Below, in pieces: positions 7,136-59,408 of a stretch of DNA of 59,408 nucleotides. The DNA is from Actinomycetes bacterium. GTDB lineage: Bacteria > Actinomycetota > Acidimicrobiia > Acidimicrobiales > CADCSY01. The DNA is taken from positions 1 through 59,408 of the forward strand of contig JANNNX010000078.1 in NCBI GenBank assembly GCA_031398745.1, in the 5' to 3' direction. The translations under genes and the position numbers were made by a program. Under the pieces are notes generated by a model. That model had not been told where the DNA came from. It did not search any database and saw nothing but the letters and a program-made list of their open reading frames with translations. Each line of letters opens with the position of its first letter. Within the stretch, counting starts at the first letter, position 1.

Positions 7136-8443
7136 TCAGTCCGAGCTGCGAGACGCGACCGTGGCTCGGGCCGCGCCGACGACGTAGAGCGATCCGGTCA
7201 CGAGGACCAGGTCATCCTCGGCGGCGAAGGCCACCGCCTTGGTGACCGCTTCCGCCACGTCGGGCACCACCACCGCCTCCACGCCCGCCCGGCGAGCGGC
7301 CGCCGCCACCTCGTCGGCCGGCATGGCCCGGATCCACTCCGCCGCGGTGGCGACCACCAGGCGGGCCCGGGTGACCTCGAGGGCAGCCAGCATCTCGTCG
7401 GCGTCTCGCTCCTGGTTCATGCCGACCACCAGGATCCGCTTGCCGCCCACCGCGAAGTCGTCGACCGTGCGCGCCGCAGCGCGAGCCCCGTCGGGTTTGT
7501 GGGCCCCGTCGAGCACCATGAGCGGCCGGCGGCCGACGACCTCGAAGCGACCGGGGACCTCGACCGAGCCGAATCCCTCGTCGAGCACCTGGCGATCCAC
7601 AGGCCGATCGAAGAACGCCTCGGTGGCCGCCAGCGCCACCGAGGCGTTGTCGCCCTGGTGGGCTCCGTGGAGGGGCAGGTGGACGTGCTGGTAGGCCGCC
7701 TCGGGGGTGCGGAGGTCGAGGACGCGGCCGCCGATGGCCAGCTGGTTGGCGTCGCAGCCGAAGTCGCGACCGGCGAGCCACAGCCGTTCGGGTCCCGCCT
7801 CTTCGAAGATCGGCCGGAGCTCGGGGGCGATCTCCCCCAGCACCAGGGTGGCGCCCGGCTTGACGATGCCGGCCTTCTCGGAGGCCACGTGGGCGGTGGT
7901 CGGCCCGAAGTAGTCGGTGTGGTCGAGGCCTACGTTGGTCACCACCGCCACGATGCCGTCGGCCACGTTGGTCGAATCCCACCGGCCGCCGAGGCCGACC
8001 TCCACGACGGCCACGTCGACCGCCTGCTCGGCAAACCAGGCAAAGGCGGCCAGGGTGAGCACGTCGAAGTGCCCGGGACGGACCCCCGACAGGCGCTCGA
8101 CGACCTCTACAGCCTCGATCGATCGAGCCAAGCCCTCGTCGTCGATGGATTCGGCGTTGCGGCTTATGCGCTCGTTGATCCGCTCGAGATCGGGGCTCGT
8201 GTAGGTGCCGACCGACAGGCCGTGGGCCGCGAGGAGCGCGCTGATCAGCCGCGAGGTCGAGCCCTTCCCGTTGGTGCCGGTGACGTGGATGACCGGCTGG
8301 GCGTGCTGGGGGTCTCCCAGCTGGCCGGCCAAGGTCCGCATCGGGTCGAGGCTGGGTGCCACTCCCCGGCTGCCGGCGGCCGTGGCCTCGAGGTTGGTGT
8401 GGGCGTCGAGGTAGCCGAGGGCTCGGTCGAGATCCCAGGCCAC
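7136..8443 (-). CDS. folC: Folylpolyglutamate synthase / dihydrofolate synthase
   Basis: P-loop HVTGTNGKGST and Mur-ligase family motifs. Start is placed at a GTG just after the clpX stop, because the 525-aa track ORF over-extends into clpX. Confidence 0.8.
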   Translation of the reverse strand: MAWDLDRALGYLDAHTNLEATAAGSRGVAPSLDPMRTLAGQLGDPQHAQPVIHVTGTNGKGSTSRLISALLAAHGLSVGTYTSPDLERINERISRNAESIDDEGLARSIEAVEVVERLSGVRPGHFDVLTLAAFAWFAEQAVDVAVVEVGLGGRWDSTNVADGIVAVVTNVGLDHTDYFGPTTAHVASEKAGIVKPGATLVLGEIAPELRPIFEEAGPERLWLAGRDFGCDANQLAIGGRVLDLRTPEAAYQHVHLPLHGAHQGDNASVALAATEAFFDRPVDRQVLDEGFGSVEVPGRFEVVGRRPLMVLDGAHKPDGARAAARTVDDFAVGGKRILVVGMNQERDADEMLAALEVTRARLVVATAAEWIRAMPADEVAAAARRAGVEAVVVPDVAEAVTKAVAFAAEDDLVLVTGSLYVVGAARATVASRSSD

Positions 8444-35152: not shown

Positions 35153-36505
35153 GTGCCTGCTGACCGAGTGCCCCCGACCGACCAGCCCGACACCACCACC
35201 GACCCGGCGTTGCGGTCGTGGGTCGAGGTCCCCCAGGGCTCCGACTTCCCGATCCAGAACCTCCCCTACGGCGTGTTCTCCCGGTCCGGCGACCGACCCC
35301 GGGTGGGCGTCGCCATCGGCGACCAGGTGCTCGATCTGGCCGCGGTGGCCGAGGCCGGAGTCTTCGACGGGGTGGTCGAGGGCGCGTCGGCGCTCTTCGC
35401 CGCGCCGGCCCTCAACCCCTTCCTGGCCGCCGGCCCGACGGTGTGGGCCGCGGCCCGGTCCCGCATCTCGCAGGTACTGACCGAGGGAGACCGCACCCTG
35501 CTCGACGCCGACGGACTGGTCGAGCGAGCGCTGGTCGCCCAGGCCGACGTCGAGCTGTCACTCCCCTTCGAGGTCGCCGACTACGTCGACTTCTACAGCT
35601 CGATCGAGCACGCCTCGAACCTCGGACGGATCCTCCGCCCCAACCAGGAGCCGCTCCTCCCCAACTGGCGCCACCTCCCCATTGGCTATCACGGGCGGGC
35701 GGGCACCATCGTCGGCTCCGGCACGCCGGTGGTGCGGCCGCTCGGGCAACGCAAGGGCGCCGACGACCCGGCTCCGGTGTTCGGCCCCAGCATCCGCCTC
35801 GACATCGAGACCGAGATCGGCTTCGTGACCGGTCCGCCGAGTGCCCACGGCGCCCCGGTGTCGACCGCCGCCGCCGCGGGCCACATCTTCGGGCTGGTGC
35901 TGGTCAACGACTGGAGCGCCCGCGACATCCAGGCCTGGGAGTACCAGCCCCTCGGCCCGTTCCTGTCGAAGTCGTTCGCCACCTCGATCTCGCCCTGGGT
36001 CGTGCCGCTGGCCGCGCTCGCTCCCTATCGGATCGCCGGCCCGGTACAGGACCCCACCCCGCTGCCGTACCTGCACTTCGAGGGTGACTGGAACTACGAC
36101 CTCTCGCTGGAGGTCCAGCTCTCCACCGAGGCCATGCGGTCCCGGGGCGACGAGCCCTTCGTGGTGTCCCGGCCCTACTACGGCCTCATGTACTGGAACA
36201 TGCTCCAGCAGCTGGCGCACGCCACCGTGAACGGCGCCTCGGTGCGCACCGGCGACCTGTTCGCCTCGGGCACGATCTCCGGGCCCGAGCGCGAGGCGGT
36301 CGGGAGCTTCATCGAGCGGACCTGGAACGGCACCGAGCCCCTTGCCCTGCCCGACGGCACCGAGCGTCGCTTCCTCGAGGACGGCGACGAGATCACCCTC
36401 ACGGGGTGGTGCGGCGGCGGCGACGACGGGCGCCCCCGGATCGGCTTCGGCGAGGTGAGGGGCCGGATCCTGCCAGCACCGACGCTCGAGGCGCCGCCGG
36501 CCTGA
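35153..36505 (+). CDS. fahA: Fumarylacetoacetase (FAH)
   Basis: N-terminal FAH_N (IQNLPYGVF) and a C-terminal FAH fold domain (HIFGLVLVNDWSARDIQ). GTG start. The 866-aa track ORF over-extends upstream. Confidence 0.85.
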   Translation: MPADRVPPTDQPDTTTDPALRSWVEVPQGSDFPIQNLPYGVFSRSGDRPRVGVAIGDQVLDLAAVAEAGVFDGVVEGASALFAAPALNPFLAAGPTVWAAARSRISQVLTEGDRTLLDADGLVERALVAQADVELSLPFEVADYVDFYSSIEHASNLGRILRPNQEPLLPNWRHLPIGYHGRAGTIVGSGTPVVRPLGQRKGADDPAPVFGPSIRLDIETEIGFVTGPPSAHGAPVSTAAAAGHIFGLVLVNDWSARDIQAWEYQPLGPFLSKSFATSISPWVVPLAALAPYRIAGPVQDPTPLPYLHFEGDWNYDLSLEVQLSTEAMRSRGDEPFVVSRPYYGLMYWNMLQQLAHATVNGASVRTGDLFASGTISGPEREAVGSFIERTWNGTEPLALPDGTERRFLEDGDEITLTGWCGGGDDGRPRIGFGEVRGRILPAPTLEAPPA

Positions 36506-36508
36506 GTC

Positions 36509-37278
36509 AGCTCGAGAGGGAGCCGGTGGCCACCGGCTCCTGGATCGACACCACCACTCCACCCGCCACCTCGTCGGTGACGGCCAGCGCCTGCACGGCC
36601 CCCGACGTCTCGAAGGGCACCACGTCGGGGGTCGGCGCCGAGGATGCCGAGCGACACCAGCCGGCCGTCGACGTCGCCCCAGAGCTGGTAGGTCCGGTCG
36701 TCGGCCAGCGCCGGCAGGTCGGAGGCCACGACGTAGTCGGGTCCGTCGGGGCGCACCACCACCCGCATCCCGACCGAGCCGTCGGCCGCCGCCAGGTCGA
36801 CCACGTCCGCCTGGGGATCGGCCAGCGCCTGCTTGACGGCCAGGTCGACGCCGTCGATGCGGTCGATCTGGTCGTCGAGATCCCGTACCCGCACGGCCAG
36901 CACGCCGATCAGCACCGCAGCGACAGCCAGCGCGGCCCCACCCGCTCGCAGCGCCCAGGTCGACCACCGGCCCGGCCCGCCGGCCCCGCCCTCGACGGTC
37001 GCCAGGCGGCGTCCGACCCGGGCCCGATCCAACGACAACGCCGGGGGGGTGTCGGACAGAGTGCCGGCGATGCGGTCCCACACCCCTTCAGGGGCAGTGA
37101 CGCCGGTGTGGGCCAGCATGGCCGCAACCTCCCGGTGCTCGACCACCTCGGCCGCGCAGCGAGGGCAGGACTCGAGGTGGCTCTCGATGATCGCCGCCTC
37201 GTCGGCCTCGACCGCGTCGAGGGCGTACGCGCCCAGCAGCTCCTCGATCTCGGCGTGGGAAAGCGATTCGATGCTCAT
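36509..37278 (-). CDS. Zinc-binding anti-sigma factor, RskA-like, with an apparent frameshift in the C-terminal domain
   Basis: HxxxCxxC (HLESCPRCA) N-terminal domain. Its start overlaps the sigma-factor stop as ATGA. It has a TM segment. The canonical C-terminus (…ADPDVVPFETSGAVQALAVTDEVAGGVVVSIQEPVATGSLSS*) is only reached after a 1-nt shift at a G5/C5 run at about 36627-36631. The uninterrupted track frame instead reads through the fah 3' end. Confidence 0.6.
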
Positions 37279-37886
37279 GACGATGCCCCACCCACGCCCG
37301 ACGCGCTCAGCGGGCCCCGCATCCGCTTGAGCCCGGCCCGGATACGGCTCTTCACAGTGCCCTCCGGCTCCCCCAACATGTCCGCCACCTCTCTGTACGT
37401 GTGCCCCCCGAGGTAGGCCAGCTCGATGGCCCGCCGCTCGGTCTCGGGTAAGCGGCCCAGGGCGTCGCGCACCTGCTCGGCCATGGCCAGGTCGAAGACC
37501 TCGTGCTCGAGGTCGTAGCCGGCCTCGGCCCGGGCTCGGTGCTCCCGGTCCTCGCGGGCCCGGCGGGACTCCTCCGAACGGATGACGTCGACGCTGCGCC
37601 CGTGGGCCTGGGCCAGCAGGAACGACCGGAGGCTCCCCCGCTCGGGGTCGAAGCGGTCGGGAGAATCCCACAGGCGCAGGAACACCTCCTGGACGATCTC
37701 CTCGGCCAGGGTCCGGTCATGCAGCAGTCTCTGGGACAGCGCGAACACGGCACCGGCGTGGCGCCGGTAGGCCTCGGCCAGCGCGTCCTCGCGCCAACGA
37801 CCGATCGCCACCACCAGGGCGGCGTCAGAAGCGGTGGAGAGGTCGAGCGGGCGCGCCATGCCTTCACCATCCGGAGCCGTCCCCAC
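37275..37886 (-). CDS. ECF (sigma-70 family) RNA polymerase sigma factor
   Basis: Region 2 (EIVQEVFLRLW) and region 4 (TYREVADMLGEPEGTVKSRIRAG) motifs. Confidence 0.85.
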   Translation of the reverse strand: MGTAPDGEGMARPLDLSTASDAALVVAIGRWREDALAEAYRRHAGAVFALSQRLLHDRTLAEEIVQEVFLRLWDSPDRFDPERGSLRSFLLAQAHGRSVDVIRSEESRRAREDREHRARAEAGYDLEHEVFDLAMAEQVRDALGRLPETERRAIELAYLGGHTYREVADMLGEPEGTVKSRIRAGLKRMRGPLSASGVGGASS

Positions 37887-42239: not shown

Positions 42240-42660
42240 GGCATCACTCGTCACTCCGTTCGCACCGCCGTCGCTGGGAACGGACCGACCGTGGCCAGTC
42301 GATGGTCCCGGTGTCGGACGAAGCCGCCGTCGCGGGTGACGTCGAACTCGACCACCTCGACGGCAGCCGACTCGCCAACTGCCCGGAGGGCACCGAGATC
42401 GATCCCGAAGCGACGACCATCCTGAGCGTCGTCACGTCGGAACACGGCGAGGTTCCTCTCGGTCGGAAAGCCATCCCCCAAGACGAGCCCCGTCTCGGTC
42501 CACAGCCCTTCGCTCTCCACCCCCTCGAACCAGCCGTCACTGCGCACTGCGGCCAGGGCCACCTGGATCAGACCCGCCGTCGGCTGCCCCCACCCCGCCG
42601 GCATCACATCCTCCGGGCGATTCGCCACCCGCACGACATCGCACTTGATCGCAGCCACCC
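42240..42660. repeat. Direct repeat copy A (about 420 bp, about 95% identical to 45703..46123)
   Basis: Near-identical DNA covers the 3' halves of both imm-like genes plus about 10 nt downstream (cactcgtcactccgttcgcaccgccgtcgctgggaacggaccgac...). The 5' halves are much more diverged. Confidence 0.75.
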
Positions 42661-42919
42661 AGGCCACATATCCATCGGCCTTGGTCACGATCGCCCCCGT
42701 CTGATCGACCACTAGCTCAGTAAGCCCGCTCAGCGTGGGGGTGCCGACGCTTCGCAAAACACCAAGGTTCAAAGAGAACGCTCGGTGGGCCTCCGCCAAC
42801 CCGAATACTGGCGCCACATCGTCTTTCCCAAACGAGATGTAACCCAGTTCGGGACGCTCCGTGAGGAACATCATCGAAGGCGAGGCATCGAACCACCCAT
42901 CGCCCACGTCTTGGATCAT
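42251..42919 (-). CDS. Putative immunity-like protein, paralog 2 (family unrecognised)
   Basis: About 85% aa identity to the gene at 45712..46395, and the C-terminal about 100 aa are nearly identical. The start is placed at MIQDVGDGWFD. The 290-aa track ORF over-extends. Confidence 0.55.
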   Translation of the reverse strand: MIQDVGDGWFDASPSMMFLTERPELGYISFGKDDVAPVFGLAEAHRAFSLNLGVLRSVGTPTLSGLTELVVDQTGAIVTKADGYVAWVAAIKCDVVRVANRPEDVMPAGWGQPTAGLIQVALAAVRSDGWFEGVESEGLWTETGLVLGDGFPTERNLAVFRRDDAQDGRRFGIDLGALRAVGESAAVEVVEFDVTRDGGFVRHRDHRLATVGPFPATAVRTE

Positions 42920-43227
42920 GATTTCCAACACTAGAACCTCACAGTCGAGGGCTGACAGCGCGAGAAGAGCAAGCTGTAGCGGCTGGCGCCGGCGAGCACC
43001 TGATGGATTCGCCGACGTTGCTTCACTTGACAAGAAGCACGACGAACCAGACGAGCATCCCGGCCATGCCCATCCCCACGAGCCATTGCGCCGTGCGGCT
43101 CGGGTGCCGCTGCGGGCCGCCACCTGCGAGCCAAAGGGCCAAGCCCACGGTGGTCAACGCGAGTGGGAAGGTTGGGGACGCCGCTCCCATCCTGTCGATC
43201 CATTCGACACTCGGCTTCCTCGGTGCG

Positions 43228-44394
43228 TCAGTTCGGCGGGTCGCTCTCTTCGGGGAACACCCGGGCCAGGCTGGGGACCATGCGCCGGACCGTCTGGCAC
43301 CACTTCTTCGTCCGCCTCGCAAGGAGGAGATCGCCGAGCGCCTCCCGGGCCCGGGTCCGGGCCCGGGCATTGAGCAGCGCCCCCAAAGAGATCTCGTAGG
43401 ACGACACGTCGGGCCACCACTCCTGCACCTCGCCCACCGTCAGCTCGGCTCCACCCGACGCCAGTGGCACTGCACCCTCCGGCCACCGGCCGCCGAGTAC
43501 CTCGAAGTGCCCCGGTCCGAGGCGCTGCCAGAAGAAGCCATCCAAGGCCTGGAACCACATCATCGGCCCGTGCTGGTGATAAGGCGATCGTCCGTCCGGG
43601 TTCATCGGTTTGTTGTGCCAGGCGGAGCACTTCGGCTGGGTGGCCACCACCGCATACGCCACCTCCCCGAGCTCCCGGCCGAGCTCGACCAACCGCTCGA
43701 CGTGCTCGACGAAGTTGGTCTCCGTCAGCCCGGGCCCGGCCACCATCGCCGTGAAACATGCCCATTCCGGCTCGGCGTTCACCGCCACGCCTCGCAACAG
43801 CTCATCCAGCTCGCCAGCGACAAAGTCAGCCGACGACCCCGCCGCCACCACCGACGAGGCCCGACGTCCCGCGGTGGCGAGATCAACCTGGCCGGCGTAC
43901 ACCTCAGCCAATCTGCAACGCACCAAGCCCTCGGCCTGCGACTCCAGCCACTCCACCCCCGCCGCCAACCAACCATCGACGATCGATGCCCGATCGGGCG
44001 AATCCGGATGCGGATACACGGCCAACACCACCGTCGGTCCCGTGATGAACAGCAACGAGAAGAACTCGGTGGTCGGTGGCACCGACACCACCGCATCGCT
44101 CACCCCCACCTCGACCAGATAGCCGACCAACACCTCGGCCATCTCCGCCCGCTGACCCCCCGACAGGTCCTCCGCCCCGAACAGGCCGACCACCCCCATC
44201 GGCAGCACCGTCGGACCCACCAACCTGTCGAACAACGGTTCGGTGAACCCGCCCTCGACATGGACGAAGTGGTGGAACAACCGATCGAAGGCCACCGCCA
44301 CCTGCTCGAGGGTCGCCGCCCCGCTCACGCACAGCACGACGTCCTCCTGCGCCCGAAGTGCGCTCGTCGTCCCCCGACCCACCACCACCGGCAT
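43228..44394 (-). CDS. Uncharacterised 388-aa protein (paralog of 44454..45629)
   Basis: Shares blocks with its neighbour (LGEVAYAVVATQP / GGRWPEGA / EWWPD). No signal peptide or recognisable domain. Confidence 0.5.
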   Translation of the reverse strand: MPVVVGRGTTSALRAQEDVVLCVSGAATLEQVAVAFDRLFHHFVHVEGGFTEPLFDRLVGPTVLPMGVVGLFGAEDLSGGQRAEMAEVLVGYLVEVGVSDAVVSVPPTTEFFSLLFITGPTVVLAVYPHPDSPDRASIVDGWLAAGVEWLESQAEGLVRCRLAEVYAGQVDLATAGRRASSVVAAGSSADFVAGELDELLRGVAVNAEPEWACFTAMVAGPGLTETNFVEHVERLVELGRELGEVAYAVVATQPKCSAWHNKPMNPDGRSPYHQHGPMMWFQALDGFFWQRLGPGHFEVLGGRWPEGAVPLASGGAELTVGEVQEWWPDVSSYEISLGALLNARARTRAREALGDLLLARRTKKWCQTVRRMVPSLARVFPEESDPPN

Positions 44395-44453
44395 CTCGCT
44401 ACACCCGGCCCGTCATGGCCGAGACAGCGCGGTCGCGACAGCCACGGACCCGG

Positions 44454-45629
44454 TCACGACGGGTCATCGAGACCCAAGATGCGCTGGCGGCGCTCGAATC
44501 GCCGCCGTGAGATATCCGAGCGCCGATCGGTGTAGGGATAGGCCAGCAACCGTGCCAGCAGCGCACGAGCCCGGGCCCGCACCGCGGCGTTGGACGTCGC
44601 CTGGCCGGATTGGTAGGTCGCCATGTTCCCGGTCATCCACTCCGCCATCTGGGCCGGCGAGTACCCCTGAAGCCAGATCTGGTCCGGCCACCACTCCTCG
44701 GGCTCACCCACCCGCACCTCGGCCCGACCCGGACCGACCACCTCAGCACCCTCGGGCCACACGCCGCCCAACTCCTCGAGGTGTCTCGCCGACAGCAACT
44801 GCCACCAATGGGCATCTGGCACCACCTGGTTGCACATTCCCATCGTGCTGTTGGTTGCCTTCGCAGCCAGCTCGTCGGCATCACCGGGCTCCAAGTAGAT
44901 GGCGGCGTGCCAGTCGGGCTCGGTCACGACCACTGCGTAGGAGACCTCCCCCAAGGAGCGTGCCAGGTCGACCAACGACTCCGCGTGCGCCACCGCCGTC
45001 GTGGGGGTGAGCGACATGCCTCCCAGAGCGACACTCAACACCGGCTCATGTGATGATCCCACGCCGACAACACCGACCTGCTCAGGCATGCGGCCGGCGA
45101 CCACCTGAGCGCTCATGCCCTGCGCGTGCGTGCCCTCCAACACCATCCGTACGTCAGCCAGCGGCAAGGTCGACTCCACCCCCGACCCGATCGTGATCTC
45201 GGCATCGCCCCCGACGAAGGGCTGCGCCTCCAGGAAGTCGCAGGCCGCCTCGAGCCAACCCGGCGGCACACGACCGACGTCGGTCAACCACAACCCAACG
45301 GGCACGGCCGGCGCGACCAACAACGCCACCGACATACCCCACTGCCGATACCGATACGGGTCCCGCTCCGCCGGACACACCACCACCGCATCGGACGCTC
45401 CCTGCTCGTCCAACAACGCCACCAGCCGGTCCGGCAACTCCCCCCACGCTCGACGACCTAGCGAATGCGCATCGATGATCACGAACGGGCCCTCCGGGGA
45501 TCGAACCGGCCCGATCACCAGGTTCACCGACTCCTCCAGATCGGCCTCCAGATCCGCCAGCAGCTCTCCGGCCAACACCGATAAGGCCCGAACGGCGGCC
45601 TCGACATCGACCGCGCCCTGCACCACCAA
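44454..45629 (-). CDS. Uncharacterised 391-aa protein (paralog of 43228..44394)
   Basis: About 35-40% identity to its neighbour (LGEVSYAVVVTEP / GGVWPEGA / EWWPD). Confidence 0.5.
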   Translation of the reverse strand: MVVQGAVDVEAAVRALSVLAGELLADLEADLEESVNLVIGPVRSPEGPFVIIDAHSLGRRAWGELPDRLVALLDEQGASDAVVVCPAERDPYRYRQWGMSVALLVAPAVPVGLWLTDVGRVPPGWLEAACDFLEAQPFVGGDAEITIGSGVESTLPLADVRMVLEGTHAQGMSAQVVAGRMPEQVGVVGVGSSHEPVLSVALGGMSLTPTTAVAHAESLVDLARSLGEVSYAVVVTEPDWHAAIYLEPGDADELAAKATNSTMGMCNQVVPDAHWWQLLSARHLEELGGVWPEGAEVVGPGRAEVRVGEPEEWWPDQIWLQGYSPAQMAEWMTGNMATYQSGQATSNAAVRARARALLARLLAYPYTDRRSDISRRRFERRQRILGLDDPS

Positions 45630-45702
45630 AGTGAACCCACCCGCGTCCCGACGGATCCTCGAGCGAACCCCCGCGCTAGGCGAGCCATGCGTTATCCCCG
45701 AT

Positions 45703-46123
45703 CAACACTCGTCACTCCGTTCGCACCGCCGTCGCTGGGAACGGACCGACAGTGGCCAGTCGATGGTCCCGGTGTCGGACGAAGCCGCCGTCGCGGGTGA
45801 CGTCGAACTCGACCACTTCCACGGCAGCCGACTCGCCCACCGCCCGGAGGGCACCGAGATCGATCCCGAAGCGACGACCGTCCTGAGCACCATCTCGCCG
45901 GAACACGGCGAGGTCCCGCTTGGTCGGAAAGCCATCCCCCAAGACGAGCCCCGTCTCGGTCCACAGCCCTTCGCCTTCCACCCCCTCGAACCAGCCGTCA
46001 CTGCGCACTGCAGCCAGGGCCACCTGGATCAGACCCGCCGTCGGCTGCCCCCACCCCGCCGGCATCGCATCCTCCGGACGATTCGCCACCCGCACGACTT
46101 CGCACTTGATCGCAGCCACCCAG
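45703..46123. repeat. Direct repeat copy B (partner of 42240..42660)
   Basis: See copy A. Confidence 0.75.
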
Positions 46124-46395
46124 GACGCGGACCCATCAGCCCCGGTGACGATCGCTCCCGCCTGATCTACCACCAGGTCGGTCACGCCGCTCAGCGTGGG
46201 GGTGCCGACGCTTCGCAACGAGCCAAGCCTCAACGAATAGGCCGCGCGCCCACCCTCCAACGCGAATACGGGGCGACCGGGACTGCCCTCTCCAAACGAG
46301 ACGTAACCCAGTTCAGGGCGCTCCGTGAGGAACATCATTGATGGCGAGGCGTCGAACCACCCATCGCCCACGTCGCGCAGAATTACCTCAAGCAT
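45712..46395 (-). CDS. Putative cognate immunity protein of the RHS toxin (paralog 1)
   Basis: 227-aa ORF starting 10 nt after the RHS stop on the same strand. It is duplicated at 42251..42919. Confidence 0.55.
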   Translation of the reverse strand: MLEVILRDVGDGWFDASPSMMFLTERPELGYVSFGEGSPGRPVFALEGGRAAYSLRLGSLRSVGTPTLSGVTDLVVDQAGAIVTGADGSASWVAAIKCEVVRVANRPEDAMPAGWGQPTAGLIQVALAAVRSDGWFEGVEGEGLWTETGLVLGDGFPTKRDLAVFRRDGAQDGRRFGIDLGALRAVGESAAVEVVEFDVTRDGGFVRHRDHRLATVGPFPATAVRTE

Positions 46396-46405
46396 ATCTC
46401 GTTCC

Positions 46406-49400
46406 TTATATTGGCGGATTCATCCGCTGTGTAGAGCACGCAGTTACACTCGAGTTCTTGCAGCCACTAGGGATAAAGATTTCAGGAAGCCCACCGCTGG
46501 TATCTTTGAATCCTGGGTAGATCTTGGTCTCAAGAGGGACCGCTGGCAGAACTTTGCCAATCGTTCGAACGTCGACGAGCAGACCGGTCGTAAGGCGATC
46601 ACCTGCGTTTTTCGGAGGATCAGGCAGCCCGGCGTAGAATCGAAAGGAACGATATCCAAACTGTCTGTCCCATGCGATCGGGTCAACGAAGGTCCAAGAC
46701 CTACCGTCACGCTGTGCCTCTCCACCGTGTGCTCGATAGATAACGAGCCCATAGTTGCCATCGCTGTCCTCGCCTGCCACACACCATGAACGGTATCGAC
46801 GGCACTCCGTCTGCAGCGCCTCCAGCTTGTCTTGGTCCTCTCGGCGATTGTCCTCTTCGGCACGGCAAGCGAAGACGCAAAGTTTAGGTAGATCGGGCAG
46901 GTCGGGCAGATCGGGCAGTCGGCCAGGAAGGTCAGGGAGATTTGGCAGGTTCGGTAGGTCAACCCCGATGGTCGCTGCCAGATACGCCAGTGCCGCCACC
47001 CCCACGGCGACAACGACAACGGCGCCGATGACCGCGCCGACTACCGCACCGCCCGCTGCGACCGCCCCACCAAGGGCAGCTGCCGCAGGGGGGACACCGA
47101 CGAATGCAGGGCTGAACACTCCGTCGCTCATCGAGTACATGCCGGTGGGGTCTGCGCGGTCGATCGGGTCGTTATCGGCGTAGTGGTAGCGGTAGGCCAC
47201 CGTGGGTGTGCCCGACACCCCACCGAGAGGGTCGGTGGTGGTGAACGCGGCCGTGGTCGGCTGGTAGTCACGGGCCCGCAGGTGGATCAGGTCGTCGACC
47301 ACCACCTCCCCCCGGTAGCCCAACTGCGGGGCGTAGGTCGAGGTCCCCGAGGCCTTGCCCCACATGTCATAGGACGTGGCCCGGGCCACCGACGCCGTGG
47401 CTGAGGTCGACAGGACCGACCCGTACACGTCGGTCGCCAGCGCCGAGGTGGTCGAGCCCTTACGCATGGCTACCCACCCCATGGTTCCCCCGACTAGATC
47501 GGTGATGGCCGACCCCGTGGTCATGCCGGTGAGCTGGGCCACACCGCCGGCGGTGTCCCAATCCAAGGTCGTCGAGGTCACCGAGGCCCCGGTGCTGGCC
47601 ACGCCCACCAGGTTGCCAGCCGGATCGTAGCTGCGGGTCTCGGTGGTCGAGCCCGACGACGACACCTCCGTCAGCGACGACAACCGGCCGGCCTCGTCAT
47701 ACACGTAGCTGGTGGCGTTCGACCCGGCCGACTCCGACACCCGTCGACCGGCCTCGTCATAGGCGTAGCTCGTCGTCACCGATCCCGCGGTCGAGGACGT
47801 GAGCTGCCCGGCCGCGTCATAGGCCCAGGTGGCGGTCACCGAGTTGCCCTTCTTCTCCTGCACCCGCCGCCCGAGCGCGTCGTAGCTCCAGCGCTGGGCG
47901 CTGCCCGACGACGGCTGGCGCACGGTGATCTGGCCCGCCAGGTCGTGGGTGTAGGTGGTGGTGGCCCCGGCGGTGGTCTCGGTGGCCACCCGCCCCGCGC
48001 TGTCGTAGCCCAGGGTGGTGGAGCGGTTGGCGCCGGCCAGCACCTGGTCGAAGCCGGTCACCCGCCCGCCGGTGTACGTCCACGTCCGGCTGCCGCCGAC
48101 CACCGCCTCACCGGTGACCCGACCGTCGGCGTCATAGGTGTATGTCGCCAACGCCGCCGTCGGCGAGGTCAGGTTGCTGAACGACACGTCGTCCACGGCG
48201 ACCTGGTGCGCCCCGCCGCTGACCCGTACGTAGGAGACCTTGGTGGCGCCAGGGTCGACCACCGCGGTGTCGGTCACCTCCGTCGACCACGCCACCGGCT
48301 CTCCGGCGGCTACGTCCCACGACTTGACTCGCACCGTGGTGCCCTCGACCCGAAAGCGCAGGCCCCGCTCACTCAGGCCCGTGGCGACGGTGAAGGTGCC
48401 GATCTGGGTGGTCGTCGTGCCGACCTTCCGATAGAGCGAGCCGGTGCTGGAGCTGTTGGCCACCTCGACCCAGTAAGAACCAGTCGACGATGACCGGCCG
48501 TACACCCGGAACTTTGCCGACGACGATGCGTCCTCGAACCGGTAGGTCAGTGCCACCTCCGAATCGGTGGTGGTCGTGCCCTTGGCGCTGATCGTCGCCG
48601 TGCTCGACCCAGTTGACCCGGTGGACAAGATGGCCTCGTTGTCCTCGATCGTCACCGAGGCCCCGGTGCCAGCGCTCACACCCCACTTGTTCGTGTCGGG
48701 GGCGGAGCCGTCGCTGCCGGTGAAGGCGTCGGCCATGGTCTCGGCCGCCGTGATGGTCGAGAGCCGCCCGGCAGCGTCGTACTGGTAGCGCTCGATCGAG
48801 CCGTCGGGGCTGCGCATCGAGGTCCGGCGACCGGCGACGTCGTAGGTGTAGCTGGTGGTCCGTCCCCCGGGGGTCACCTGCTGCGTCTGGGCCCCGCCAG
48901 CGTCGTAGGCGTAGGTGGTCGTGCCCGAGGCATCGGTGATGCTCGTCACCCAACCGGCGGCGTCGTGGGTGTAGTCGACCTGGCTGCCGTCGTCGTAGGT
49001 GCGCGTCGTCAGCTGGCCGGCGGCGTCGAAGGTGTCGGTGGTCGACCGACCCGACGGGTCGACGGTGGTGCTGAGGCGACCGGCGTCGTCGAAGCCCGTC
49101 GTAGTAACCCGTCCCAGCGGGTCGGTGGTCTCGGTCTGCTGGCCGGCCGCGTCATAGCCGTAGCTGGTCACGCCGCCCAGGGCGTCGACCATCGAGGTGC
49201 GCCGACTGCGGCTGTCGTAGCCGTAGGTCGTCAGCTTGCCCAGCGCGTCGGTGGCGGCGGTCTGGCGACCATCGGCGTCGAAGGTGTACGTCGTCGTCCC
49301 CGCGCCGGTCTTGGTCACCGATACGAGCTGGCCCTTGGCGTCGTAGCCGTTGGTGGTGACCACCCCGGCGGAGTCGGTCATCGTGGCCACCCGCCCGGCG

Positions 49401-49798
49401 GAGTCGTAGGTGCTGGCGGTGACCAGGCCCGACGGTGACGTCACCGACAGCTGGTTGCCGTCAGCGTCGTGGACATAGGTCGTCGTGCCCGAAGCCGTGG
49501 TCACCGCCACCAACCGGCCGGCGGTGTCGTAGGCATTGGTCGAGGTGTTCCCGGCCGCATCGGTGGTCGTCGCCACCCGTCCGGCCGGGGTGTAGGTGGT
49601 GGTGGCCACGCCACCGCGGGCGTCGGTCTCGCCGACCACCCGGCCGAGGGCGTCGTAGCTGGTCGACACGACGTGGCCGGCTGGGTCCGTGACCGACGAC
49701 TGGCGTCCGGCGGCGTCATAGGCCGTGGTCGTCGTGCGACCGAGCCCATCGGTGGTGGTGACCTCGCGTCCGGCGGCGTCGTAGCCGGTGGTCGTCAC
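46406..49798 (-). CDS. RHS/YD-repeat polymorphic toxin, C-terminal portion: YD-repeat shell, RHS core end motif and a variable C-terminal toxin domain
   Basis: Dozens of YDxxGR repeats. RHS boundary motif YRYHYADNDPIDRADPTGMYS. Then a Gly/Ala/Val-rich hydrophobic segment, an (LPD/LPN)n linker and a final domain of about 170 aa with lower-GC DNA. It is contiguous with 49716..52064 through a 1-nt frame change. Confidence 0.85.
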   Translation of the reverse strand: MTTTGYDAAGREVTTTDGLGRTTTTAYDAAGRQSSVTDPAGHVVSTSYDALGRVVGETDARGGVATTTYTPAGRVATTTDAAGNTSTNAYDTAGRLVAVTTASGTTTYVHDADGNQLSVTSPSGLVTASTYDSAGRVATMTDSAGVVTTNGYDAKGQLVSVTKTGAGTTTYTFDADGRQTAATDALGKLTTYGYDSRSRRTSMVDALGGVTSYGYDAAGQQTETTDPLGRVTTTGFDDAGRLSTTVDPSGRSTTDTFDAAGQLTTRTYDDGSQVDYTHDAAGWVTSITDASGTTTYAYDAGGAQTQQVTPGGRTTSYTYDVAGRRTSMRSPDGSIERYQYDAAGRLSTITAAETMADAFTGSDGSAPDTNKWGVSAGTGASVTIEDNEAILSTGSTGSSTATISAKGTTTTDSEVALTYRFEDASSSAKFRVYGRSSSTGSYWVEVANSSSTGSLYRKVGTTTTQIGTFTVATGLSERGLRFRVEGTTVRVKSWDVAAGEPVAWSTEVTDTAVVDPGATKVSYVRVSGGAHQVAVDDVSFSNLTSPTAALATYTYDADGRVTGEAVVGGSRTWTYTGGRVTGFDQVLAGANRSTTLGYDSAGRVATETTAGATTTYTHDLAGQITVRQPSSGSAQRWSYDALGRRVQEKKGNSVTATWAYDAAGQLTSSTAGSVTTSYAYDEAGRRVSESAGSNATSYVYDEAGRLSSLTEVSSSGSTTETRSYDPAGNLVGVASTGASVTSTTLDWDTAGGVAQLTGMTTGSAITDLVGGTMGWVAMRKGSTTSALATDVYGSVLSTSATASVARATSYDMWGKASGTSTYAPQLGYRGEVVVDDLIHLRARDYQPTTAAFTTTDPLGGVSGTPTVAYRYHYADNDPIDRADPTGMYSMSDGVFSPAFVGVPPAAAALGGAVAAGGAVVGAVIGAVVVVAVGVAALAYLAATIGVDLPNLPNLPDLPGRLPDLPDLPDLPKLCVFACRAEEDNRREDQDKLEALQTECRRYRSWCVAGEDSDGNYGLVIYRAHGGEAQRDGRSWTFVDPIAWDRQFGYRSFRFYAGLPDPPKNAGDRLTTGLLVDVRTIGKVLPAVPLETKIYPGFKDTSGGLPEIFIPSGCKNSSVTACSTQRMNPPI
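46886..46960. repeat. Imperfect 6/12-nt tandem repeat encoding a DLPNLPNLPDLPGRLPDLPDLPDLPKL linker
   Basis: gatcgggcaggtcgggcagatcgggcagtcggccaggaaggtcagggagatttggcaggttcgg, coding on the minus strand. Confidence 0.7.
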
Positions 49799-52064
49799 CT
49801 CGCCCCAGCGGGTTGGTCACCGACGTCTGGTTGCCGTCGGCGTCGTATGCGTAGGTCGTCTCTCGACCCAGCTCGTCGGTCGAGCGCAGCAAGCGCCCGA
49901 GGACGCCCCAGGTGTTGGTGGTCGTCGTCCCGTCAGGGTTGGTGGTGGTCACCAGCTGACCCCGGGAGTCGTACTCATAGCTGGTCACATGGCCCAAAGG
50001 GGTACTGGTGGAGGCGGTACGGCCGTGGGCGTCGTAGATGTTGGTGGTCACGCCACCCGAGGGGTCGGTCGTGGTCACGAGACGACCGACGGCGTCGTAG
50101 GCGTAGGCGGTGGTCTGGCCCGCGGGGTCAGTCGTGGTCAGCACCCGACCACCCCCGTCGAAGGTCCAGGTGGTGACACGACCGGCTGCCGTCGTCTGCT
50201 GAGTCCGGTTACCGGCGGCGTCGTATTGGTAGGTGGTGGTCCCGGCCGCAGTCGTCGAGCTGGTCATCCGTCGGGATGCGTCGTAGGAGTAGGTCGTGGT
50301 CACGCCGTCGGCATCGGTCGACGAGGTCACCAGCCCGTCGGAGCTGACGTAGCTGGTCGTCTGCCCGACGTGGTCGGTGACCGACGTCGGTACCCGGCTC
50401 GATCCGTCGTACGTGTAGGTCGTCGTCCCCGACGCCGGCGACGACGTCGAGGTGACCCGATCGAGGGCGTCGTAGGTGGCGGTCGAGGTGATGCCAGCCT
50501 CGTCGGTGGCGGTGACCACGTTGCCGTGCGCGTCGTAGGTCTGGGCCACGGCCTGGTCGAGCCGACCCACGGCGGCCACGACGTTGCCCGACGCGTCATA
50601 GGTCCGACTGAGGACACCGCCAACGGGGTCGGTGGCCTGCGTGACCCGAGCATTGACGTCGTGCTGGTAGGTGACGACCTCGCTCGATGCCGACTCGGTC
50701 ACCGTGGTGGTGCCGGTGTCGTCGTCGTACTCGAACGTCGTGGTCGAGGTCCCCGGACCGGCGTGCTGGGCAAGGACCCGCCCCCGGGAGTCGTAGGTGT
50801 TGACGGCGACGACCCTGCCCGTGGCGTCGGTGATCGACGCAATACGTCCTGCGGCATCGAGAGAATATGCGGTGGCTCCGGCGCTGGGCGTGGTCACCGA
50901 CACGAGGCGGTCCGACGAGTCATACGCATAGGTGGCGTTTCGACCGTCCGACGATTCGACATTGGCCAACCTCGCAGAGGCGGTGTAGGTGAACGCCAGA
51001 GATCCACCGGATGAAGAACTGACCTCGGTCACCAGACCGTCGACATCTCTTGCGATGGTGATCGATTCGCCCTCGGCATCACTCTGGGCAACCAGCAAGC
51101 CCTGGTCGTCGTAGGTCCACACCTCGCCGGAATACCAGGTGAGCGTCCAGGTAAGCGTCCAGCTGCTGTCACGGTGCTGGGCCAGCTCGCCGTACTGGTC
51201 ACCCGGGCGAACGAAGACGGTGCCGTCCGTCTCGTAGGTCACCTCTCGGCCATCGGGGAGTACCAGCGCGGCGGAGCCGCCGGTCTGCAACGCCACCGTC
51301 GAGTCGTAGGCGCCCCGCCAGCCGACCCCCATCGCCCCCGAGGTGAGATCGCGCGAGTTGTAGGTGGTCGTCCAGGCCAGGCCGAAGGCATCGGATGCCC
51401 CCGCCAGATCGGTGCTCGACAGCACGAAGTTCCCGGACGCGGTGTCCACCGGGTCCGACGCCGTCATCTGACCCGATCGATAGCCCAGCGTCGAGCGCAC
51501 CGGCACCGTGGTGGCGCAGGTTTCCGTCGGGAGACCCGCGAACGCTCCGGTCGGCGAGGCCACCTCGAGTCGCACGGTGTCGCACGCGTAGTTGTCGGAG
51601 TCGAAGAGTCCGATTCTCGGAGCGTCGTCCCGCAACCCCGACGACAGCTGCGTCGCGTACCGGGACAGACCGGAGAAGCGGACCTCCCGCTCCACGCCCT
51701 CGATGACGACGTGACCGGGAGTGGTGAGCACGTCGATCAGCAAGGACTCGTCGGCGGATCCATATCCCGAGCTGCTCACAAGGAACCCGTCGAGACAGGA
51801 GGCGTCCACGTCGATGCGGAACGCACTGGCTGTACTCGCGTCGGCGAGCACCGCCGTGCACGACGTGGTGCCCGTCGGCGTCACCGAGGCCTCGTAGGAG
51901 AAGTACTGATCGACCTCCCCCGTGGTCAGGTTCAGGCTCACGATGGGATCAGCAGCTGCCGGCACCGTCGCTAGGGGCTGGATCACGGCCAAGGCGGACG
52001 ACAGCGCGGACAGAGAAACCCCGACCCCAACCCCCATGCGATGCATGGATCCGACCATAGACAC
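49716..52064 (-). CDS. RHS/YD-repeat polymorphic toxin, N-terminal portion: Sec signal peptide, N-terminal domain and the start of the YD-repeat shell
   Basis: Signal peptide MHRMGVGVGVSLSALSSALAVIQPLATVPAAA. RHS shell-opening motif DPVDTASGNFVLSSTDLAG. YD repeats (TYDASGNVV, TYDAHGNVV, YAYDADGNQ). After ...SVTNPLGR the frame decays to junk, while the +1 frame continues as TTTGYDAAGR. Confidence 0.85.
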   Translation of the reverse strand: MSMVGSMHRMGVGVGVSLSALSSALAVIQPLATVPAAADPIVSLNLTTGEVDQYFSYEASVTPTGTTSCTAVLADASTASAFRIDVDASCLDGFLVSSSGYGSADESLLIDVLTTPGHVVIEGVEREVRFSGLSRYATQLSSGLRDDAPRIGLFDSDNYACDTVRLEVASPTGAFAGLPTETCATTVPVRSTLGYRSGQMTASDPVDTASGNFVLSSTDLAGASDAFGLAWTTTYNSRDLTSGAMGVGWRGAYDSTVALQTGGSAALVLPDGREVTYETDGTVFVRPGDQYGELAQHRDSSWTLTWTLTWYSGEVWTYDDQGLLVAQSDAEGESITIARDVDGLVTEVSSSSGGSLAFTYTASARLANVESSDGRNATYAYDSSDRLVSVTTPSAGATAYSLDAAGRIASITDATGRVVAVNTYDSRGRVLAQHAGPGTSTTTFEYDDDTGTTTVTESASSEVVTYQHDVNARVTQATDPVGGVLSRTYDASGNVVAAVGRLDQAVAQTYDAHGNVVTATDEAGITSTATYDALDRVTSTSSPASGTTTYTYDGSSRVPTSVTDHVGQTTSYVSSDGLVTSSTDADGVTTTYSYDASRRMTSSTTAAGTTTYQYDAAGNRTQQTTAAGRVTTWTFDGGGRVLTTTDPAGQTTAYAYDAVGRLVTTTDPSGGVTTNIYDAHGRTASTSTPLGHVTSYEYDSRGQLVTTTNPDGTTTTNTWGVLGRLLRSTDELGRETTYAYDADGNQTSVTNPLGRGDDHRLRRRRTRGHHHRWARSHDDHGL

Positions 52065-58864: not shown

Positions 58865-59408
58865 ATGACCGTGACCGACGAGATCGTCGTCGAGGCGTCC
58901 GAGCCCGACGAGCACGGCTACCGCACCTACACGCTGGGCGAGTTCGCCTTCCGCCGCGACGAGTACTTCGTCCACGTCGCCTGGCCCACCGGCTCCCACC
59001 TGATCTCGGCCGACGCCTTCCTCCGGGCCATCCAGCGCGACGTGGCCTGGGACTTCTTCTACGGGACGGTGAACTTCGACGGGGTGGTCGGCACCGTAAA
59101 CCACTACGGCGACGTCGATCTGTTCGCGGGTCGCTACAACGACGCCTACCGCAAGGCCGAGCTCGACCACGTCGAGAACTTCCCGGCGCCCCAGATCCGA
59201 GCGACCTTCGAGGCGATCCTGGCCGACTGGACCAACGACGGCTTCGACCCGTTCGCCAGCCCGGCCGAGACCGGCAGCGCCTTCGGCGACAAGCACGGCG
59301 ACAACCTGGCCGCGGGGGCCCCGCGCCCGGGGGCCGCCGCCCCCCGGGGGGGGGTGGCCCGCGCCGCGGTGTCCCCCCGCCCGCGCCCGGGCGTTGCGGG
59401 CAAACCGG
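58865..59408 (+). CDS. Hypothetical protein, 3' end outside the window
   Basis: An ATG preceded by ggaggg. It translates as MTVTDEIVVEASEPDEHGYRTYTLGEFAFRRDEYFVHVAWPTGSHL... with coding-like GC3. It is not in the ORF track because it runs off the edge. Confidence 0.4.
   Translation, partial: MTVTDEIVVEASEPDEHGYRTYTLGEFAFRRDEYFVHVAWPTGSHLISADAFLRAIQRDVAWDFFYGTVNFDGVVGTVNHYGDVDLFAGRYNDAYRKAELDHVENFPAPQIRATFEAILADWTNDGFDPFASPAETGSAFGDKHGDNLAAGAPRPGAAAPRGGVARAAVSPRPRPGVAGKP

Follow-up and report, generated by a model that had tools for sequence, protein, structure and literature searches.

Does the RHS gene of this contig carry a real frameshift, or does the deposited sequence carry one base too many? 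The question arises on the minus strand of contig JANNNX010000078.1 (NCBI GenBank assembly GCA_031398745.1), which comes from an Actinomycetes bacterium of the order Acidimicrobiales. The whole stretch of 59,408 nucleotides, a complete NCBI contig, was analyzed and is called the window here. In it, an RHS/YD-repeat toxin gene running from 52064 to 46406 changes reading frame once, by one extra nucleotide at a short run of G. This break is probably a one-base error in the deposited consensus and not a feature of the organism. The argument proceeds by analogy with a second break of the same kind on the same contig, at a place where an independent assembly is available for comparison.

One frame change in the RHS gene

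The RHS gene measures 5659 nt, a length of 3n+1. It is divided by the frame change into the following parts, all on the minus strand.

49800..52064, minus strand: N-terminal part of the RHS protein in frame A, ~755 aa, with a signal-peptide-like N-terminus, a unique region, DUF6531, and YD repeats (from translation, Pfam, and NCBIfam).
49796..49811, minus strand: frame-break junction, ccg ctg ggg cga g/gtg acg acc, with one G too many (the slash marks the change of frame).
49716..49799, minus strand: out-of-frame tail of frame A, GDDHRLRRRRTRGHHHRWARSHDDHGL and then a stop; noncoding in frame A.
46406..49798, minus strand: C-terminal part of the RHS protein in frame B, 1130 aa.
Peptide bridging frames A and B at the junction: NPLGEVTTTGYDAAGR.

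The sequence-only reading of this locus had reported a single-nucleotide frame break inside the RHS gene without stating its strand. One switch is confirmed by the translations, by a frame plot of GC content at third codon positions (GC3), and by Viterbi segmentation. The frame changes at ...NPLGR/VTTTGYD, about 49796-49806. The open reading frame (ORF) in frame A (49716..52064, 782 aa) reads ...YAYDADGNQTSVTNPLGR and then GDDHRLRRRRTRGHHHRWARSHDDHGL*, so that its tail past the junction consists of 27 Arg/His-rich codons followed by a stop. In frame B, bases 49716..49799 encode canonical YD-repeat sequence. Frame B is open from 49816 to the stop at 46406 and reads ...VTTTGYDAAGREVTTTDGLGR... 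over 1130 more codons. Both frames thus read at the junction as had been described, with the upstream ORF decaying into junk and the next frame continuing a YD repeat. The GC3 plot and the segmentation place a single phase switch at ~49802, with GC3 ~0.9 on either side. The open frame and the high GC3 persist for 3.4 kb past the break, with no stop and no second frame change.

Both halves of the gene are strong matches to RHS families. PF05593 (RHS_repeat) is found in 11 stretches of the N half (E 4e-79) and 17 stretches of the C half (E 2e-91), and the NCBIfam model TIGR01643 (YD_repeat_2x) in nine and 15 stretches, respectively. The frame break is therefore not a chance juxtaposition of two open frames.

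The two open frames overlap by 101 nt (49716-49816), and the shift is physically possible anywhere inside this overlap. The repeat consensus narrows it to 49796-49806. The break had been said to coincide with a G run, and GGGG (49803-49806, minus strand) does stand at the junction, with a further run, GG, at 49798-49799. Removal of one G from either run yields a single RHS ORF of 1885 aa with no further stop. In the repaired protein, the spacer from 'YxYDxDGx' to the next 'YD' is 15 residues long (QTSVTNPLG[R/E]VTTTG), the same length as in four homologues (P0001, P0002, P0006, and P0008). Because removing one base restores the repeat register exactly, one extra base is the right description of the lesion. 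Two lines of evidence conflict on which G is surplus. Codon usage prefers the surplus G in GGGG (giving CTG-GGC-GAG-GTG) by 6-24 fold, whereas in the repeats of the protein itself 'PxG' is preferably followed by Arg, which implies that the surplus G lies in GG. The junction shows no tandem repeat and no unusual RNA structure (local fold z = -0.78).

A second break contradicted by independent sequence

The evidence on the origin of the RHS break comes from two other genes of the window.

36507..37278, minus strand: RskA-type anti-sigma factor, frameshifted, with an extra C in the run at 36627-36631.
7136..8443, minus strand: FolC, with two single-base differences from Logan contig L080, at 7496 and 8165.

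The sequence-only reading had noticed a like homopolymer shift in the anti-sigma factor gene, and it is indeed there. The gene is preceded by an ECF (extracytoplasmic function) sigma factor gene (37275-37886). Its frame reads ...LGILGADP and then junk, and the next frame resumes with DVVPFETSGAVQALAVTDEVAGGVVVSIQEPVATGSLSS*; the junction is GAC CCC C GAC. Independent data exist for this gene in Logan contigs from run SRR20217204, which come from nearly the same organism; 3758 bp (3.76 kb) of them were compared with the window. The repaired anti-sigma protein (256 aa) is 100% identical over its full length to P0231, a protein found only in Logan. The contig that encodes P0231, L081, aligns with window positions 37779-36181 over 1598 bp with 0 mismatches and 1 gap. 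This single gap is the anti-sigma run, which is CCCC in Logan and CCCCC in the window. The broken 366-aa product was not found in any other assembly.

A second Logan contig, L080, carries the exact Ndk protein of the window and aligns with the window over 2160 bp at 99.9% identity. In all, three differences separate the window from Logan in the 3758 bp compared: the extra C of the anti-sigma gene and two transversions in FolC. FolC is normally an essential enzyme, and GAHNP is its active-site motif. The codon at 7496 is AAA (Lys) in the window but AAT (Asn) in Logan, which changes residue 316 and turns GAHNP into GAHKP. The Asn of this motif is conserved in all three solved FolC structures that were aligned. 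The other difference, at 8165, puts ATA in the window in place of the ATC of Logan; ATA is a near-forbidden codon, counted 2 times in this genome against 525 for ATC. All three differences are therefore damaging or anomalous on the window side. Between strains that are 99.9% identical, natural differences should mostly do no harm, and anomalies that all fall on one side point to consensus error instead. The FolC differences at 7496 and 8165 are probable base-call errors in the deposited contig.

The RHS break is most likely an artefact because an independent assembly lacks the like break in the anti-sigma gene and because the contig holds other implausible base calls. By this analogy, the RHS site would share the cause of the anti-sigma error. 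The surplus G at 49798-49806 would be one base called too many in a short G/C run, and the organism would carry an intact RHS gene of ~1885 codons for a secreted YD-repeat polymorphic toxin.

Homopolymer consensus errors of this type occur in draft genomes and metagenome-assembled genomes (MAGs). As here, they appear as a one-base gain at a short G/C run, with the downstream frame intact and codon-biased, and the likeness extends to a second such break on the same contig that an independent assembly contradicts. NCBI PGAP labels such errors as 'frameshifted' pseudogenes. Neither the broken RHS protein nor the broken anti-sigma protein is present in the NCBI-derived protein collection, which fits annotation of both genes as frameshifted pseudogenes. 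The window differs from typical cases in its low rate of breaks and in having much longer runs that are correct.

The rate follows from an audit of every same-strand frame change in the window. It found two breaks, in the RHS and anti-sigma genes, in ~52 genes and 59.4 kb, and both are gains of one nucleotide at short G/C runs. The region at 56.4-58.2 kb and the block at 42-46 kb were inspected and show no frame breaks. Four other suspected breaks, at ~4155, 7136, 11913, and 54905, proved to be ordinary gene boundaries: ATGA/GTGA overlaps and the passages from FolC to Ndk, from dodecin to trigger factor, and from an ABC ATPase to an FtsX permease. Across the window there are 614 G/C runs of >=4 nt, including 33 of >=6 nt (6-9 nt), and the RHS gene alone contains 50 runs of >=4 nt. 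Among the runs of >=4 nt that can be compared with Logan, 39/40 agree, and longer runs in the compared stretches (G7, C6) are correct in the window. The sequence-only reading had favored systematic indel error. Indel error is indeed the best supported explanation, given the absence of the extra C from L081 and the FolC anomalies, but 'systematic' overstates two breaks in 59.4 kb.

Two observations on the ends of contigs may be recorded here. Logan contigs are unitig-like and break inside genes. L081 and L083, both from run SRR20217204 but from two organisms with 76% nucleotide identity, have their two ends at homologous positions when set against window 36181-37779, which probably reflects branching of the de Bruijn graph at shared k-mers. 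Such branching would account for the lack of exact matches to most proteins of this genome. The end of the window (59300-59408) is extremely GC-rich and of low complexity (C6 G9 ... C6), and its last ORF turns Pro/Arg/Gly-rich. This stretch may be the cause of the assembly break there, or it may be another problem region.

A genuine mutation as the alternative

Several points weigh against a consensus error at the RHS site. Searches for an independent sequence across the junction were negative, so the argument at this site is by analogy. In the JGI metagenomes, a DNA pattern across the junction, written to accept both G counts, had no match. A 153-aa junction protein query, which covers fragments of ~90-268 aa, returned nothing above 55% identity. 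An exhaustive phmmer search of 1.84 billion representatives with a 709-aa junction-centered query found no near-identical fragment in its top 150 matches (<=46% identity), although fragments below ~300 aa could hide behind long multi-repeat RHS proteins. Exact-protein look-ups with genes of the window (ClpP and the GT2 gene with two starts each, ORF A1, and three genes whose ATG start is unambiguous) also found nothing. The low rate of breaks and the agreement of 39/40 runs, given above, also count against frequent miscalling. The same holds for a sister MAG, GCA_031399525.1: the anti-sigma gene of this relative (P0232) lies on sequence that is 100% identical over 1577 bp between the NCBI MAG and a Logan contig from the same run. 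This identity indicates that the assemblies of the project are not grossly indel-prone. The window may derive from a different sample or technology. Finally, the window and the Logan contigs may represent different samples or strains, in which case their differences could be private mutations.

These points make a genuine, very recent, strain-private +1 frameshift a serious alternative. The RHS gene would then be a fresh pseudogene, cut after ~755 aa and before the core and toxin domains, with the immunity-like array behind it intact. This is the strongest of the alternatives, though less likely than a consensus error. A cell can do without RHS genes and anti-sigma factors, and indels naturally concentrate in short G/C runs. 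Both breaks of the window fall in dispensable genes, where loss of function is tolerated or even selected, and the housekeeping majority is spared; random errors would more often hit this larger housekeeping fraction. The sister MAG matches Logan perfectly, so the pipeline is not obviously poor, and substitutions too separate the window from Logan, so a different strain is possible. In addition, the RHS gene and its downstream array lie in a region of low GC3 (42-47 kb) and are not in the 5 kb that follow the helicase gene in the nearest relative.

Precedent for such a mutation comes from Pseudomonas aeruginosa. The mucA22 allele is reportedly the loss of one G in the G5 tract of mucA, a real and selected frameshift. 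Like the site at 36.6 kb, it is a single-base homopolymer frameshift in an anti-sigma factor, which makes a real mutation a biologically reasonable reading of that site. However, unlike mucA22, the anti-sigma allele of the window is private to one contig, is not found in an independent assembly, and is accompanied by an implausible change in the FolC active site.

What tells against a real frameshift in the RHS gene is of the same kind. The gene shows no second lesion in 5.66 kb and has fully kept its codon bias. The only like break that can be tested, that of the anti-sigma gene, is missing from an independent assembly that is otherwise identical over 1598 bp, and no other record of the broken allele was found. 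A viable natural genome is unlikely to have Lys where the FolC GAHNP motif has its conserved Asn, so that the private differences of the window look like errors. A one-base consensus error thus remains the favored explanation of the RHS break.

Readings in which the break is bypassed or used

If the extra G were real and the gene expressed, two outcomes can be conceived, and the chance that either holds is very small. The ribosome could recode the message by a programmed +1 frameshift at CUG GGG CGA. Alternatively, translation could re-initiate at the GTG at 49798, giving a secreted N-terminal piece of 782 aa and a C-terminal piece of 1130 aa that together form an RHS cage in two parts, as in TcB/TcC. 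Split RHS cages do occur in Tc toxins. At this locus, frame B opens at the junction itself with a GTG, which GGGG precedes by 4 nt, and CGA accounts for a minority of Arg codons (8.7% across the genome).

Nevertheless, the features expected of a recoding site are missing. The sequence-only reading had already ranked programmed frameshifting low, and it finds no footing here. The shift site has neither a stop nor a very rare or starved codon, as CGA makes up 8.7-14% of Arg codons and is used 15 times in the RHS gene. The upstream sequence, CAACCCGCUG, has no Shine-Dalgarno (SD)-like element, and no significant RNA structure is predicted (z = -0.78, as above). Programmed frameshifting of the prfB type resembles this case in that a +1 shift is needed for read-through, but it differs in having an in-frame stop and an SD-like stimulator about 3 nt upstream, neither of which, nor any structure, is present at the window site. 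The homologues are all single ORFs in the same register, and none exceeds 46% identity among the 1.84 billion representatives, so no orthologue was found that could show conservation of the site. The C-terminal piece would have no signal peptide. Furthermore, the independent data lack the like break of the anti-sigma gene. Against the split cage, the homologues are all single ORFs, and the two frames overlap by 101 nt, with the junction GTG as the sole start.

A phase-variable switch, with expression of the toxin toggled by slipped-strand mispairing in the run of G, had also been proposed from the coincidence of the break with a G run, but it is hardly credible: the tracts of known contingency loci have about 7 nt or more, whereas this run has just 4 nt (or 2 nt) and is unremarkable among the 614 runs of >=4 nt in the window, the 33 of 6-9 nt, and the 50 in the RHS gene. 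Three further mechanisms were likewise rejected: slippage in transcription, slippage at a tandem repeat (none lies at the junction), and an RNA structure that promotes recoding (z = -0.78).

The RHS protein and its homologues

The repaired RHS gene most likely encodes a secreted polymorphic toxin of the DUF6531-RHS type, judging from its sequence. DUF6531 (PF20148) lies at aa 204-277 (E 2e-16). In the C half, YD repeats are followed by a ~190-aa insert without YD repeats, further YD repeats, and an Rhs_assc_core domain that ends in DPIDRADPTGM. The core (TIGR03696) scores 46.6 bits against a cut-off of 32.5 at aa 810-887 of the C half and is followed by ...DPIDRADPTGMYS. Past DPIDRADPTGM come a hydrophobic Ala/Gly/Val stretch, (D/N)LP repeats, and a C-terminal domain of ~190 aa. 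The YD-repeat shell, the core, which closes the shell and has an end of the DPxG(L/M) type, and DUF6531, which serves Gram-positive members as an N-terminal plug or adaptor, are features of the RHS toxin family. The last ~244 aa of the protein (46406-47140, minus strand) have no Pfam or NCBIfam match. The (D/N)LP repeats of the C-terminus correspond to a 9/18-nt tandem repeat at 46890-46927.

Two further features of the repeat shell were observed. The ~190-aa non-YD insert, ADAFTGSDGSAPDTNKW...VDDVSFSN, breaks the shell at aa ~1150-1340 of the repaired protein (~48050-48620, minus strand, as estimated from residue numbers). It is also conserved in P0001, P0002, P0006, and P0008. Searched alone, the insert has no Pfam match, and some homologues are annotated with Laminin_G_3. 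Near aa 300 (51135-51162, minus strand), a 12-nt unit in 2.3 tandem copies encodes WTLTWTLTW, a small in-frame tandem duplication.

The homologues speak for a gene read as one piece. All good RHS homologues are single ORFs of 1220-3288 aa with a layout of DUF6531, RHS repeat, and YD shell, and the top 150 matches of the phmmer search are all single long proteins. A comparison with RHS genes of related genomes had been suggested as a check on the break; these genes are unbroken, but none is above 46% identity. When the repaired protein was compared with genome contigs, its relatives reached at most 41% identity among the matches listed. By sequence comparison, then, the gene is lineage-specific, being at most 46% identical to anything public.

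Known actinobacterial polymorphic toxins with DUF6531 and RHS/YD repeats share the architecture seen here: DUF6531, a YD shell, Rhs_assc_core, and a variable C-terminus. They include P0001 (1941 aa, 41% identity) and proteins annotated as 'DUF6531 domain-containing protein' in Cellulomonas sp. Y8 and in Acidimicrobiales MAGs. P0001 is the closest homologue and, like the RHS protein of the window, has the hydrophobic stretch and a DLPNLP linker; unlike it, P0001 has a different C-terminal domain. The window gene differs from these known toxins in being interrupted as deposited and in that its C-terminal ~190 aa and the ORFs downstream have no family match.

The array downstream of the RHS gene

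Four ORFs follow the RHS stop on the same strand and form a paralogous array, A1-B1-B2-A2 (42251-46395, minus strand).

45712..46395, minus strand: ORF A1, 227 aa, 10 nt past the RHS stop; candidate immunity gene by position.
44454-45629, minus strand: ORF B1; no family match.
43228-44394, minus strand: ORF B2, 32% identical to B1; no family match.
42251-42964, minus strand: ORF A2, 85% identical to A1; no family match.

The C-terminal 47 aa of A1 and A2 are identical, and A1 has no Pfam or NCBIfam match. Judged by their position, the A and B ORFs may be a duplicated array of immunity genes. The sequence-only reading had spoken of an intact immunity gene beside the toxin gene. A 227-aa ORF does stand 10 nt downstream, but its assignment as an immunity gene is positional, and no family match accompanies it.

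The array region has a GC3 below that of the rest of the window, within the low-GC3 block at 42-47 kb. On its other side, the 30-42 kb part of the window is syntenic with contig L082 of the nearest relative (GCA_031399525.1, JANNOZ010000023.1), with FAH, anti-sigma, sigma, epimerase, and helicase genes in this same order at 75-78% nucleotide identity. The 5 kb past the helicase gene in L082 hold an FMN reductase gene and other genes, and no RHS gene or A/B array. This suggests that the RHS gene and the A/B array are an insertion, a variable region, or an accessory toxin/immunity island.

Significance

The main value of these results is a quality flag: a public contig holds at least one demonstrable one-base consensus error and a probable base-call error in FolC. 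Given such errors on the contig, reads should back the RHS and anti-sigma 'pseudogenes' before either is taken for gene decay. Were the RHS break real, the gene would only be another young RHS pseudogene, and such pseudogenes are common. If the extra G were real and the gene expressed, the locus would offer, if true, a case of recoding or of a split RHS cage in an Acidimicrobiia-like actinobacterium. The RHS gene itself is mildly interesting as a lineage-specific gene with an uncharacterized C-terminal domain and, behind it, a duplicated A/B array of candidate immunity genes.

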